Source of the DNA: Acidimicrobiales bacterium
GTDB taxonomy: Bacteria; Actinomycetota; Acidimicrobiia; Acidimicrobiales; Acidimicrobilacustridaceae
Assembly (NCBI GenBank): GCA_046331175.1
Contig: JAXLRI010000014.1
Coordinates: 71,287 to 135,286, forward strand
Direction: 5' to 3'
Length of the DNA: 64,000 bases
Shown here: piece by piece, positions 24,664 through 64,000 of the stretch
Position numbering within the stretch: position 1 is the stretch's first letter
Layout: each line of letters begins with the position of its first letter
Made by a program: the position numbers and the translations under genes
The notes under the pieces: generated by a model
Told to the model about the DNA's origin: nothing
Seen by the model: the letters and a program-made list of their open reading frames with translations, nothing else
The model's database searches: none

Positions 24664-26499
24664 ATGAGACGAGCGCGCATCAGCGCCCTGCTGGCCGGCC
24701 CCCTGCTGGTGGTGGCCCTGGCGTCGGCACCGGGCACCGCCGAGGCGACCACGCCCTGCCCGACGATCGCCGACGCCAACGCGTCGGCCAACCCGCCCGG
24801 TCCGGCGCTGCAGCCGTACCTCGAGGGCGACTACCGCCTCGGCCCGGCCAGCCTCGAGGCCGTGGGCCCGGTGAAGGAGATGCTCCAGGGGTACGACCAG
24901 CTCGCCGGCGTCTCGTCCAGCACCTTCCTGGCGTGCTGGTGGCACGGCGCCATCCCCAGCGTCTCGGACCCGGGCTACTGGTACCCGAAGAACGACGGCT
25001 TCGCCACGTTCGGCGGCCAGCCGCTCAAGTACAAGGCCGTCCTGACCACCGGGCAGGTCGTCGACCTCTTCGGCAGCGGCCGCGGCCAGTTCCTGGCGCC
25101 CTTCAACACGCCCTACGCCCAGCGCGCCCTCCCGCCGACGAACCTCGACACCTTCGACGACCACTACCCGTACAACTTCCACGAGTACGTGGTGCTCAAG
25201 CCGTTCGAGGTCGAGGCCGGCCCCATCGCCGACTGGTTCGGCCAGCCCGGCCTCGGCACGCAGTACTTCACCGACAAGACGGTCGCGCCGGGCCTGCCGG
25301 CCAACCCGCACGTCAACAACCTCGTCGACGCCGGGTACCTGGCCCAGATCACGCCGATCCCGCTGCGCTTCCACCCGCTCGACCCCACCCGCATCATCGA
25401 CTCCCGACCCGGCGGCGTCGGCCCCTTCACCACGCCGTGGGGCCCCGGTCAGACCCGTGACATCACCGTCGCCGGCAACGCCGGCGTGCCGGCCAACGCC
25501 GAGGCCGTGATCCTCAACGTGACGGTCACCGACACCACGGCCCCGTCGTTCCTCTCGGTGTGGCCCGCCGGCTCGACCCAGCCGAACGTGTCGAGCCTCA
25601 ACTGGGTGAAGGGCCAGACGATCGCCAACTCGGTCACGACGAAGCTGGCGCTGGCGCCCAACGCCGGCAAGCTGTCGATCTTCAACGCCAGCGGCACCGC
25701 CGACGTGATCGTCGACGTGGCGGGCTACTACGTGGCCGACCACACCGCCGAGGGCTTCACCCCGCTCCCCCCGACGCGCATCGAGGACTCGCGCCCGCCG
25801 GGCATCGGCGGCTTCGACACGCCGTGGGGTCCCGGGGAGACCCGGGACATCAGCGTGCCGGGCCTGCCCATCGACGCCACCGCCGCCGTGGTCAACGTGA
25901 CGGTCACCGACACCAGCGCCGACTCCCACCTGACCATCTGGCCGTTCGGCGGCACCCAGCCGGTGGCCTCGACGCTCAACTGGTCGGCCGGCCAGACGAT
26001 CGCCAACGGGGCGACCGTGAAGCTCGGCGCCGACCACAAGCTGTCGATCCGGAACTCGTCGGGCACCGCCGACGTCATCGTCGACCTGGTCGGCTACTAC
26101 CGGACCCAGGGGGCCCAGAGCTTCTACGCCGTGCCGCCCACCCGCGTCGAGGACTCCCGTGCGTCCGGACCCCCGGTGGGCCCCTACTCCACGCCGTGGA
26201 CCGCCGGCCTGAACCGCCCCGTGCCGCTCGCCAGCCCCACCTCCGCGGGCACGGCGCTGGTCCCGAGCTGGGCCACGTCGGTGGTGACCAACGTGACGGT
26301 GACCAACACGACGGCGGCGTCGTTCCTCACGATCTACCCGACGGGCGAGGCCCAGCCGCTGGTCTCCACGCTCAACTGGGTGCCGGGCCAGACCATCGCC
26401 AACGGGACGACGACGTCGCTCGCGGCGCTGCAGTCGACCGTCTACAACAGCGCCGGCCAGACCGACGTGATCATGGACGTCTCCGGCTGGTTCGCCTGA
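24664..26499 (+). CDS. Secreted TNT-domain (NAD+ glycohydrolase toxin-like) protein with three C-terminal repeat modules
   Basis: ORF 24664..26499 opens with the signal peptide MRRARISALLAGPLLVVALASAPGTAEA. The TNT core reads FGSGRGQFLAPFNTPYAQRALPP...YVVLKPFEVEAGPIADWFGQPGLGTQYF. It is followed by 3 repeats of about 120 aa. Confidence 0.9.
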   Translation: MRRARISALLAGPLLVVALASAPGTAEATTPCPTIADANASANPPGPALQPYLEGDYRLGPASLEAVGPVKEMLQGYDQLAGVSSSTFLACWWHGAIPSVSDPGYWYPKNDGFATFGGQPLKYKAVLTTGQVVDLFGSGRGQFLAPFNTPYAQRALPPTNLDTFDDHYPYNFHEYVVLKPFEVEAGPIADWFGQPGLGTQYFTDKTVAPGLPANPHVNNLVDAGYLAQITPIPLRFHPLDPTRIIDSRPGGVGPFTTPWGPGQTRDITVAGNAGVPANAEAVILNVTVTDTTAPSFLSVWPAGSTQPNVSSLNWVKGQTIANSVTTKLALAPNAGKLSIFNASGTADVIVDVAGYYVADHTAEGFTPLPPTRIEDSRPPGIGGFDTPWGPGETRDISVPGLPIDATAAVVNVTVTDTSADSHLTIWPFGGTQPVASTLNWSAGQTIANGATVKLGADHKLSIRNSSGTADVIVDLVGYYRTQGAQSFYAVPPTRVEDSRASGPPVGPYSTPWTAGLNRPVPLASPTSAGTALVPSWATSVVTNVTVTNTTAASFLTIYPTGEAQPLVSTLNWVPGQTIANGTTTSLAALQSTVYNSAGQTDVIMDVSGWFA

Positions 26500-26513
26500 T
26501 CCGATCGCTCGAC

Positions 26514-61722: not shown

Positions 61723-64000
61723 ATGAGCAGATCAAGACGAGCGCGACGGATCTGCGTGGTGCTGGTGATTCTTCAGGTCGGCCTACTCGGAGTCGGCAAT
61801 GTCACCCTCGCCGCACCGGTCGGCACCGTCCTGAACTTCACCGGTGCCGGAATCTCGGGTCCGGTTGGAATCACGCGCGGCCCCGACGGAGCGATGTGGT
61901 TCAGCAACGGCAGCAACGACTCCATCGGGCGCATCGCCGGTGACGGGACAGTCACCAACTTCACCGGCGTCGGCGTCTCGTCCCCCTTTGGGATCACGGC
62001 CGGCTCTGACGGAAACATCTGGTTCACCAACGCCGGGAACAACTCGATCGGCCGAATCACTCCAGCCGGTGTCGTCAGCAACTTCACTGGGGCGGGCATC
62101 TCTGGGGTGCGCGGCATCAGTCTCGGGCCCGACAACAACCTCTGGTTCACCAACAGTGGCAACGACTCGATCGGCCGGATCACTCCCGCAGGCGTCGTTT
62201 CGAACTTCCACACGGCAGGAATGAGCGTCGGCTTTGCCATCACAGCAGGCCCAGACGGCAATCTTTGGTACACAGGGATCAACTCAATCGGCCGATTGAC
62301 CACGTCCGGCGTGATGCTCCCCGCCTTCACCACCTCGATTTACGAACCCATTGCTATCGCATCCGCACCTGACGGCTACATCTGGTACTCGAGCTCGACG
62401 GCGCGGGTCGTTGGGCGCGTGAGCGTCAGCGGCGCCGTTACGAACTACTTCGCCTCTGCCGTCGGGACGCCTCACGGTATCGCTGCGGGACCCGACGGGA
62501 ACATGTGGTTCAACAGCACGACAAACAACACAGTCCGGCGAATCAACAACTCCGGGGTCGTGACGTCCTTTAGTGGGCCCGGGATCTCCAGCCCGGAGGC
62601 GATCGCCCCTGGTTCAGATGGCCGCATGTGGTTCACGAACCTCGGCAACAACTCCATAGGAAGCGCGACGGCCGCCAATGTAGCTAGCGCACCGGCGAGA
62701 CCTTGGGCCGCTGCCGGCGTTGGAATGGCGACCATCTCGTGGGAGCCACCCGCTGACGGTGGTTCGCCCATTACCGGCTACTCGGTGACGGCGCTCCAAG
62801 GCGGAGCTCCTTCCGGACAAACTTGCACTGCCAGCGCCCCGGCCACGAGCTGCGACGTCACCGGGCTGGCAAACGGCACCGCATATACCTTTACGGTAAC
62901 TGCTACGAATGCCGTCGGTGACAGCGCCGCGTCGTCGCCCTCAGCGTTGACCGTACCCGACGTTGGAAGCCTATTCCATAGTCTAAGTGCCCCGATCCGA
63001 ATCCTGGATTCACGGCCACCGCCCGAACAGGTGGGTCCCTACTCGACGCCATGGACAGCTGGCACCGTGCGTGATGTGCTGGTAGCAGGCCTCGCTGGAG
63101 TACCCGCTGATGCAACCGCCGTGACACTGAATGTGACGGTCACGGGCGCCACGGCACCTAGCTTCTTGACTCTCTGGCCCAAGGGCCAAGGGCAGCCCAC
63201 CGCATCGAATCTGAACTGGGCGACGGACCAAACGATTCCGAATGCGGTCACGGTTAAGGTTGGGCTGGGAGGCAGCATTTCCGTGTTTAACGCGTCCGGA
63301 GATGCCACCGTCATCATCGATGCCGTTGGGTACTTCGACCACTCCGGGTCGGCCGCGGGCTTCGTTTCCCAGGCACCCGTCAGGATCCTCGATTCCCGGC
63401 CACCACCTGAGCAGGTCGGCCCCTACTCGACACCGTGGGGCCCAGGCACCGATCGCCTCGTTGCGGTGGCTGGCTCCGCTGGCGTGCCGGTGGACGCTGA
63501 GGCAGTTGTCCTCAACGCCACCGTGACGTCGACGACAGCTGAGTCGTTCCTGACGCTTTACCCAGATGGCAGCCCAGCGAAGCCGACCGCATCATCGTTG
63601 AATTGGAAGGCTGGTGTCACCATCCCCAACGCCGTGACCGTGAAGATCGGCACAGGCGGGAACATCCGGGTCTTCAACAACTCCGGCAGTGCCAACGTCA
63701 TTCTCGATGTGGTCGGCTACTTCAGGAGCGGGTCGGGCGATCCGTTCCACCCGGTCGCGCCGGTGAGGTTCCAGGATTCTCGGCCGGGGACCGAGAGCGT
63801 TGGCGCGTACACGACCCCGTGGGGAACGGCCACGACGAGAACCGTGTCCGTTCTGTCGTCTGGTGCAGCGCCGAGTGGCGCCACTGCCGTCATCGCGAAC
63901 TTCACGGTCACCTCCACCTCGGCCGAGTCATTCGCGGCGGTGTGGAACACCGGGGCCGCCAAGCCCACCGCGTCGAGCCTCAACTGGAAGGCCGGCACCA
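61723..64000 (+). CDS. Secreted Vgb-like beta-propeller - FN3 - repeat-module protein (3' end beyond window)
   Basis: My own translation from ATG 61723 gives MSRSRRARRICVVLVILQVGLLGVGNVTLAAPVG. It continues with blades (GPDGAMWFSN...IGRITPAGVV), an FN3 domain (~62690-62950, ISWEPPADGGSPITGYSV...YTFTVTATN) and 3 repeat modules from ~62971. It is absent from the ORF track because no stop lies in the window. GC is about 60%. Confidence 0.85.
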   Translation, partial: MSRSRRARRICVVLVILQVGLLGVGNVTLAAPVGTVLNFTGAGISGPVGITRGPDGAMWFSNGSNDSIGRIAGDGTVTNFTGVGVSSPFGITAGSDGNIWFTNAGNNSIGRITPAGVVSNFTGAGISGVRGISLGPDNNLWFTNSGNDSIGRITPAGVVSNFHTAGMSVGFAITAGPDGNLWYTGINSIGRLTTSGVMLPAFTTSIYEPIAIASAPDGYIWYSSSTARVVGRVSVSGAVTNYFASAVGTPHGIAAGPDGNMWFNSTTNNTVRRINNSGVVTSFSGPGISSPEAIAPGSDGRMWFTNLGNNSIGSATAANVASAPARPWAAAGVGMATISWEPPADGGSPITGYSVTALQGGAPSGQTCTASAPATSCDVTGLANGTAYTFTVTATNAVGDSAASSPSALTVPDVGSLFHSLSAPIRILDSRPPPEQVGPYSTPWTAGTVRDVLVAGLAGVPADATAVTLNVTVTGATAPSFLTLWPKGQGQPTASNLNWATDQTIPNAVTVKVGLGGSISVFNASGDATVIIDAVGYFDHSGSAAGFVSQAPVRILDSRPPPEQVGPYSTPWGPGTDRLVAVAGSAGVPVDAEAVVLNATVTSTTAESFLTLYPDGSPAKPTASSLNWKAGVTIPNAVTVKIGTGGNIRVFNNSGSANVILDVVGYFRSGSGDPFHPVAPVRFQDSRPGTESVGAYTTPWGTATTRTVSVLSSGAAPSGATAVIANFTVTSTSAESFAAVWNTGAAKPTASSLNWKAGT

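Follow-up and report, generated by a model that had tools for sequence, protein, structure and literature searches.

A module carried in threes by secreted proteins of Acidimicrobiales and other Actinomycetota: a candidate non-covalent surface tether

Four genes lying within 40 kb of one another in an Acidimicrobiales genome encode secreted proteins with unrelated heads, to each of which the same small module is appended in several copies. What could a single module contribute to a NAD+ glycohydrolase, a metalloprotease and beta-propeller proteins alike, and why should it come in threes? The stretch of DNA that raises this question, hereafter the window, comprises 64,000 nucleotides of the assembly GCA_046331175.1 (contig JAXLRI010000014.1, positions 71,287 to 135,286, forward strand). 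The repeat had been picked out in an earlier note, made from the letters of the sequence, as a module of about 120 residues shared by a family of secreted effectors.

Copies of the module and the genes that carry them

To delimit the module, we translated the four genes, set the repeat boundaries by the anchors R-x-x-D-S-R and D-x-x-G-(Y/W)-(Y/F), and searched the six-frame translation of the whole window with a profile hidden Markov model (HMM) built from the copies. The search returned 12 copies of about 122 residues each, 10 of them complete and 2 cut, spread over the four genes; beyond these, no match rose above noise in any of the six frames. The copies, with their HMM E-values, are as follows.

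25366-25731, plus strand: TNT protein, module 1 (E=2.8e-55, model positions 2-122)
25753-26103, plus strand: TNT protein, module 2 (E=1e-52)
26119-26493, plus strand: TNT protein, module 3 (E=2.2e-48), ending 2 codons before the stop
35829-36194, minus strand: M4 protease, module 1 (E=6.4e-58)
35421-35786, minus strand: M4 protease, module 2 (E=4.6e-48)
35034-35402, minus strand: M4 protease, module 3 (E=1.2e-55)
52681-52797, minus strand: broken Vgb-like gene, remnant of module 1 (E=1.7e-15, model positions 85-123 only, that is 39 positions)
52297-52662, minus strand: broken Vgb-like gene, module 2 (E=6.1e-61)
51919-52281, minus strand: broken Vgb-like gene, module 3 (E=9.8e-57)
62974-63339, plus strand: Vgb/FN3 gene, module 1 (E=4e-58)
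63358-63726, plus strand: Vgb/FN3 gene, module 2 (E=7e-60)
63742-63999, plus strand: Vgb/FN3 gene, module 3, cut by the window edge (E=1e-36)

The coordinates given in the earlier note agree with these matches to a few bases, and the ordered motifs that it quoted are indeed found in the copies. Since testing an HMM on its own source copies is circular, the least similar pair of complete copies (TNT copy 3 and M4 copy 2) was also compared directly by BLASTP, independently of the HMM, and aligned with E=3e-21. The copies thus form a real repeat, with pairwise identities of 39-80% (mean 53%) among the complete ones. Across 130 homologues, the invariant columns are R9, D12, R14, N53, N91, D117 and G120.

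The genes that carry these copies, as delineated by translation, Pfam and, for carriers 3 and 4, the HMM matches, have the following architecture.

24664-26499, plus strand: carrier 1, with signal peptide, TNT domain (NAD+ glycohydrolase), three modules and stop (translation, Pfam)
35031-37865, minus strand: carrier 2, with signal peptide, FTP propeptide, thermolysin-type M4 metalloprotease, three modules and stop (translation, Pfam)
52770-53960, minus strand: head of carrier 3, a pseudogene, with signal-peptide-like N-terminus and Vgb_lyase-type beta-propeller (Pfam)
51913-52797, minus strand: remnant array of carrier 3, in another frame than the head and running to the stop (HMM matches, frame comparison)
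61723-64000, plus strand: carrier 4, with signal peptide, Vgb_lyase propeller (61978-62679), fibronectin type III (FN3) domain (62728-62943) and three modules (Pfam, HMM)

The heads proved to be as unrelated as the earlier note had held. Carrier 1, which is identical to MFN8040837.1 ('TNT domain-containing protein [Acidimicrobiales bacterium]', from an Acidimicrobiales metagenome-assembled genome, MAG), matches the TNT family PF14021 over residues 127-229 (E=3.4e-29, 101.6 bits against a cut-off of 27); carrier 2 matches FTP, Peptidase_M4 and Peptidase_M4_C (E=9e-32); the head of carrier 3 matches Vgb_lyase (PF24684, E=2e-84 to 1.7e-83); and carrier 4 matches both Vgb_lyase (E=3.3e-88) and fn3 (E=1e-14). 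For each of the three genes with its end inside the window, the array reaches the stop codon and so occupies the extreme C-terminus, and the N-termini of the three intact genes (MRRARISALLAGPLLVVALASAPGTAEA, MGGTLRVRRSVAVLLVALVVPAVAGIAAGG and MSRSRRARRICVVLVILQVGLLG) are signal-peptide-like by eye, as had also been proposed for the full-length carriers.

Carrier 3 is truly broken by a deletion and a frameshift, because the frame of its head stops and the array resumes mid-module in another frame. The open propeller frame extends over 52770-54212, with candidate starts at 53960 (ATG) and 53879 (GTG), and stops at 52770-52772, whereas the array frame restarts at position 85 of module 1; the region matching the FN3 domain of the Vgb/FN3 paralogue is missing, together with most of module 1.

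Family, copy number and predicted fold

The module has no counterpart among named families in the collections searched, in line with the earlier note, which could not assign one. Neither Pfam-A nor NCBIfam gave any family at its curated cut-off on the module, whether in the window proteins, in 130 homologous modules or in divergent arrays of the Streptomyces and Micrococcales types, and PF04122 (CWB2), PF00395 (SLH), C1q and TNF were all without a Pfam match on it. Searched by sequence, the PDB gave a best E-value of 0.72 to a 10-sequence profile and nothing at E<=1 to a 76-sequence triplet profile. Two families were considered as distant relatives and rejected: DUF7369 was detected in only 6 of the 130 modules, with a best E of 1.6e-4 that is below cut-off, and the 32 bits of DUF7709 on the homologue P0122 are the sum of five near-identical repeats of about 13 bits each, also below cut-off. 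Neither the curated family libraries (Pfam, NCBIfam) nor solved structures nor the literature that could be searched yielded a prior description of the module; the Gram-positive polymorphic toxins of a 2022 paper were set aside as an unrelated, S8-linked toxin system. The kind of device is known, namely modular, non-catalytic, repeat-based binding or anchoring on secreted proteins; what seems not to have been described before is this fold, this family and the strictness of its triplets in Actinomycetota.

When 1.84 billion cluster representatives (clusters at 50% identity) were searched with a profile built from the 10 complete copies, 35,850 of them matched at E<=1e-3, 26,335 at E<=1e-10 and 11,309 at E<=1e-30. 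Where these carriers are named, in RefSeq as elsewhere, they are called "hypothetical" or take the name of another domain. A Pfam scan of 109 representative carriers identified the following heads.

Fibronectin type III: fn3 (27 carriers)
Beta-propellers: Vgb_lyase (12), NHL, SGL
Peptidases: Peptidase_S8 (8), M4, M10, M12B-like
Peptidoglycan hydrolases: M23 (3), CHAP (2), GH25, SpoIID
Glycoside hydrolases: GH43, GH44, GH76
Others: RCC1, PKD, TIG, TNT

Most of the 109 carriers bear proteases, propellers, FN3 and similar heads, glycoside hydrolases being a small minority, and from these sequence matches the range of heads looks like a surface or exo-proteome, not like one enzyme class. Under a crude hydrophobicity-plus-charge test, at least 94 of the 150 top carriers have a signal-peptide-like N-terminus, many of the others being visibly truncated gene calls. 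What had been read as a family of four secreted effectors appears to be secreted, as proposed, and is far wider in scope: it comprises at least 35,850 clusters, with heads that are mostly ordinary exoenzymes. Headless, stand-alone triplets also exist (for instance P0148, of 409 aa, and P0260).

A genome scan started from a four-copy alignment, and thus sampling only the 'LDSRPPPEQVGP' subfamily, detected 38 loci with this narrow sub-motif, all of them in Acidimicrobiales, Iamiaceae, Microthrixaceae, Rhabdothermincola or unclassified Actinomycetota MAGs. The closest single MAG harbors at least 11 loci for the one narrow sub-motif alone; the window holds its four carriers in 40 kb. Full triplets were also located by tblastn on plasmids of Streptomyces, Curtobacterium, Arthrobacter and Paenarthrobacter, and on these matches the family spans at least two actinobacterial classes, given the Acidimicrobiia loci on the one hand and the plasmid triplets of Streptomyces and Micrococcales on the other. 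Phage lysins and tail proteins were rejected as carriers after a tblastn search of 50,697 phage genomes gave no match.

Two of the plasmid-borne proteins, both holding distant members of the module family, are encoded as follows.

NZ_CP094491.1 (plasmid pB), 6776-11275: Rhs toxin gene, on a plasmid typed as conjugative
NZ_CP126253.1 (plasmid pW21), 3845-7054: cutinase family protein gene, on a plasmid typed as non-mobilizable

The Paenarthrobacter ureafaciens Rhs toxin (WP_243542105.1) consists of a signal peptide, three modules (residues 69-448) and the Rhs core, and the Curtobacterium 'cutinase family protein' (WP_146248389.1, 1,069 aa) has its three modules at residues 46-418, straight after the signal peptide.

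The number of modules is far more constant than the "arrays of about three" of the earlier note implied: three was right, and the "about" can be dropped. Exactly three modules are present in 132 of the 150 best-scoring carriers, a ranking by summed score that under-samples one- and two-module proteins and in which longer arrays would show. None of these 150 has more than six modules; six-module proteins are built as 3+3, and five-module proteins as two modules, a gap and three modules. In the less biased sample of 38 loci seeded by a single module, the array spans about 1,130 nt, or three modules, at about 35. The triplet lies at the extreme C-terminus in 119 of the 132 proteins and is N-terminal or internal in the remaining 13, and neither an LPXTG motif nor a membrane helix follows the C-terminal arrays, since these end at the stop codon.

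Modules within one protein share 59-65% identity, against 46-51% between modules at the same position of different proteins. This pattern led us to reject an ancient A-B-C unit, as in C1q chains. Repeats of the beads-on-a-string kind vary freely in number, whereas here the count holds at three in spite of homogenisation within genes; in these sequences selection thus appears to act on the number itself. Fixed triplets are a hallmark of the SLH and CWB2 pseudo-trimers (PMC4973711, PMC5817068).

The structure of the module was predicted with AlphaFold2, which from an alignment of 130 sequences modelled a single copy as an all-beta, 8-stranded beta-sandwich with a predicted local distance difference test score (pLDDT) of 98.1. 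The M4 triplet (35031-36200, 389 aa, 76-sequence alignment) was modelled with a pLDDT of 95.7 and a predicted template-modelling score (pTM) of 0.92, and it is accordingly this pTM that leads us to describe it as a predicted single rigid body with a defined geometry between modules, not beads on a string. In a Foldseek search of the PDB, the single module found weak fold-level matches only (best E=1.8e-3, template-modelling (TM) score <=0.5). Its neighbours include the porphyran-binding carbohydrate-binding module (CBM) 8xmz, CBM6, CBM16, CBM36, a hyaluronan-binding module, the BC2L-C lectin, domain III of Cry5B, BclA/C1q-like and TNF-like trimeric jelly rolls and a plant-virus coat protein. 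For the triplet, the top match is a single-chain gC1q trimer (5hzf) with E=4e-7 but a TM score of 0.23 and a root-mean-square deviation of 21.6 Å, and the viral triple jelly roll of STIV is also among the top matches (TM about 0.2); a fold search of BFVD gave generic jelly-roll matches only, with TM <=0.25. The check that the earlier note had recommended, folding one array and running Foldseek, thus yields a confidently predicted rigid triplet and weak likeness to known structures at the level of the fold.

What the triplet may do

A catalytic role of the module is unlikely, because it has only 122 residues and is triplicated beside enzymes of every kind. We favour a role in surface tethering, on account of the fixed triplet, the breadth of the heads, the many carriers per genome and the absence of an alternative anchor, and we rate at close to an even prospect, if slightly under it, that the triplet holds exoproteins non-covalently on a glycopolymer of the producer's own cell envelope, both the binding and the ligand being deduced by analogy. 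A carrier would leave the cell by the Sec route via its N-terminal signal peptide. Each module would then act as a small, non-catalytic, jelly-roll-like beta-sandwich of eight strands, and three consecutive modules would pack into one rigid body, closed in a pseudo-threefold manner, that binds as one unit. Once across the membrane, the triplet would attach to an envelope glycopolymer, the likeliest being a secondary cell-wall polymer or a peptidoglycan-linked glycan, so that the enzyme head, be it a protease, NADase, peptidoglycan hydrolase, glycosidase, propeller or Rhs toxin, would remain displayed at the surface of the cell and not be lost by diffusion.

The analogy draws on two well-described wall anchors of Firmicutes, whose principle would here be realised with another, all-beta fold. 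In Clostridioides difficile, all three repeats of CWB2 are needed, and the pseudo-trimer that they form binds the polysaccharide PSII (PMC4973711, PMC5817068, PMC6081394); the species has 29 CWB2 proteins, whose heads include proteases and peptidoglycan-modifying enzymes (PMC4973711) and are spread much like those of the module. SLH motifs likewise form one pseudo-trimeric unit that holds S-layer proteins and exoenzymes non-covalently on a secondary cell-wall polymer (PMC6081394, PMC4973711). The module resembles CWB2 (PF04122; Cwp proteins of C. difficile, CwlB of Bacillus) in having three tandem repeats as its unit, of about 100 residues in CWB2, and in its many unrelated secreted heads (in CWB2, proteases, amidases and adhesins), its dozens of copies per genome and the absence of a covalent anchor. 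It differs in having no PF04122 match, in being predicted all-beta and in belonging to Actinomycetota. The CWB2 repeat, judging from the structures of Cwp6 and Cwp8, is reportedly of mixed alpha/beta fold, and no CWB2 structure appears among the top 50 Foldseek matches in the PDB for either the single module or the triplet. With SLH (PF00395; Bacillus, Paenibacillus) the module shares the use of three tandem motifs as one unit, whereas the SLH motif has about 55 residues (PMC5817068) against about 122 all-beta residues here, there is no sequence match, and no csaB-like context was seen. A parallel of another sort is offered by the WapA-type Rhs toxins of Gram-positive bacteria, in which a signal peptide is followed by a putative cell-wall-anchoring region, then by the Rhs core and the toxin (PMC12704120). 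The triplet of the Paenarthrobacter Rhs protein sits where WapA has that region. In WapA of S. suis the region comprises different domains, a LysM repeat domain and a DNRLRE domain among them (PMC12704120).

Several observations weigh against tethering to the producer's own wall. Genes for wall-polymer biosynthesis do not lie near the carriers, either in the window or in one other context, and phage lysins often borrow wall-binding domains from their hosts, whereas the array is without a homologue in the phage genomes searched. The CBM- and lectin-like neighbours of the fold fit the binding of an external glycan equally well, and the TNT and Rhs toxin heads could need a receptor on a target rather than self-anchoring. 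As to geometry, with a TM score of about 0.23 the modelled arrangement of the modules is not demonstrably C1q-like; the closed pseudo-threefold ring, which the triplet probably forms, is read from the pTM and the rule of three, and that rule has to be taken together with the bias of the top-150 ranking described above.

These same observations bear on the main alternative, in which the triplet acts like a lectin or CBM and directs its carrier to an external glycan, in the way of the B moiety of an AB toxin. The glycan could be that of an insoluble polysaccharide, of detritus or of the surface of a prey, competitor or host cell, and enzymes and toxins would thereby gather at their substrate or target, not at the wall of the producer. 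The nearest folds (CBMs, lectins, Cry and Vip3 toxin domains) would suit such a unit, as would the glycoside hydrolases among the heads (GH43, GH44, GH76, GH25), the toxin-type TNT and Rhs heads, which could require recognition of a target, the lack of linked wall-polymer genes in the contexts checked and the lack of phage homologues. The module is predicted to resemble jelly-roll CBMs and TNF/C1q-like trimeric lectins in being a beta-sandwich of similar size, and these are its best structural neighbours. The likeness is at fold level only, with TM <=0.5 for the module, about 0.23 for the triplet and 8-17% identity, and the majority of the heads do not act on carbohydrates. Proteases, propellers, FN3 domains and an NADase are atypical company for substrate-targeting CBMs, among which a fixed copy number of three is rare, and the presence of one conserved set of modules, with its invariant R, D, R, N, N and D, on such diverse enzymes points to one common ligand. 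We therefore regard targeting to external glycans as possible, if somewhat doubtful.

Two further explanations dispense with a glycan ligand. The triplet might be a structural body, either a Ca2+-stabilised jelly roll that helps the protein to fold, to stay stable or to resist proteases outside the cell, or else a stiff stalk or platform for oligomerisation: the invariant Asp and Asn could be metal ligands, the predicted rigid body would fit, and headless triplets exist. For a pure stabiliser, occurrence on so many unrelated and by themselves stable folds, and at either terminus, would be surprising, as would exactly three copies with conserved polar residues of the surface type; stand-alone triplets are easier to understand as binding proteins. 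This makes a purely structural role improbable. More improbable still, to the point that we give it very little credence, is that the array serves as a secretion or sorting signal for a dedicated machine of export or attachment, after the manner of the type IX C-terminal domain or of the signals that sortases and exosortases read. The extreme C-terminal position of 119 of the 132 triplets and the conserved G(Y/W)(Y/F)x tail at the end of the array would agree with such a signal. It is made unlikely by the 13 triplets that are N-terminal or internal, to which the Rhs and cutinase proteins add, by a size of about 380 residues that far exceeds known sorting signals, by the ordinary Sec-type signal peptides of the carriers and by the absence of a conserved machinery gene among the neighbours in the contexts checked; the type IX domain is also unlike the module in that the unit here is a triplet that need not be C-terminal. 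Because about 10% of the top carriers, Rhs and cutinase proteins included, have the array immediately behind the signal peptide, binding or tethering accounts for the data better than export does.

If tethering is taken as the working explanation, a bolder proposal may be formulated, which we advance with considerable reserve: that the triple jelly roll is a third, independently evolved pseudo-trimeric and non-covalent wall anchor after SLH and CWB2, that it defines the displayed surface proteome of Acidimicrobiia and many Actinomycetes (Streptomyces, Micrococcales), that its ligand is an actinobacterial wall glycopolymer, and that the invariant residues of R-x-x-D-(S/T)-R...N...N...D form the binding sites. 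On either of the two leading explanations, tethering or external targeting, it may be more apt to regard the "TNT toxin" of carrier 1 as an NADase that is displayed on the surface or targeted to a glycan, and less so as a toxin delivered in the classical way.

Genomic surroundings and implications

The 40-kb span with the four carriers is not one system, because the genes in between have unrelated housekeeping and regulatory roles. Those that separate and flank the carriers include genes of the Metallophos, SpoIIE-CHASE-GAF, RibD_C, ArsR and TetR types, a copper-oxidase cluster, a beta-lactamase-family gene and a FAD monooxygenase. A search for conserved genomic partners or a wall-polymer cluster was given up, the neighbours here being unrelated and the one external context equally uninformative. 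Directly upstream of the TNT gene, and divergent from it, is an EncFtn-like (encapsulated ferritin) gene (24157-24576, minus strand, Pfam E=2e-38), which is adjoined by a gene for a HAD-family hydrolase (23062-24156); of the neighbours of the TNT gene, the EncFtn-like gene and a phosphoesterase, none was recognised as an immunity-like gene. In the interval from the TNT to the M4 carrier, positions 27772-30696 (plus strand) encode a large sensor phosphatase with CHASE, GAF and SpoIIE (PP2C) domains, and two long open reading frames (30380-31924, plus strand, and 31567-35142, minus strand) are without a Pfam match; the latter is probably not a real gene, given its atypical GC content by codon position. 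The copper-related cluster (41180-43817, plus strand) encodes a cupredoxin/plastocyanin-like protein, a DUF302 protein and a three-domain multicopper oxidase, and upstream of it are regulators of the ArsR type (38336-39307) and of the TetR type (39565-40353).

The end of the window is of different composition. GC content is 0.70-0.78 in the window and drops to 0.64-0.66 in its last 4 kb; from 54000 to 64000 it falls to 0.64-0.70, and this low-GC region contains two transposase/integrase genes.

55986-57428, plus strand: transposase with Mu-transposase C-terminal domain and helix-turn-helix
59342-60847, minus strand: transposase, rve/IS481-like

The last 10 kb or so thus looks like an acquired island. 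At about 61083-61130 (minus strand) lies the 3' fragment of a tRNA gene, with a CAU anticodon loop, the T-arm GCAGGTTCAAATCCTGC and a CCA end, followed by a GC-rich hairpin; ARAGORN found no complete tRNA in the whole window. Situated between the IS481-like transposase and the Vgb/FN3 gene, the fragment looks like the remnant of an att site at an island boundary. Carrier 4 has a GC content at third codon positions of 0.75, against 0.92-0.98 in the other three carriers, and its modules 2 and 3 share 73-76% DNA identity with those of carrier 3. It may be a horizontally acquired copy, the resident paralogue at 51913-53960 having decayed.

Acidimicrobiia occur abundantly in water, soil and activated sludge but have been little cultured. 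To our knowledge, the way in which exoenzymes are retained at the surface of these bacteria, and of many Actinomycetes, is poorly understood. Whatever its role, the module marks a blind spot of annotation, with at least 35,850 clusters at 50% identity that lack a counterpart in Pfam, NCBIfam or the PDB. Should it bind external glycans, it would represent a new and very large family of lectins or CBMs. Should it tether its carriers to the wall, it would predict that thousands of proteins reside at the cell surface, hint at a wall polymer not yet described and provide a display tag for actinobacterial biotechnology, and it would constitute a third convergence on the principle that three repeats make one anchor.

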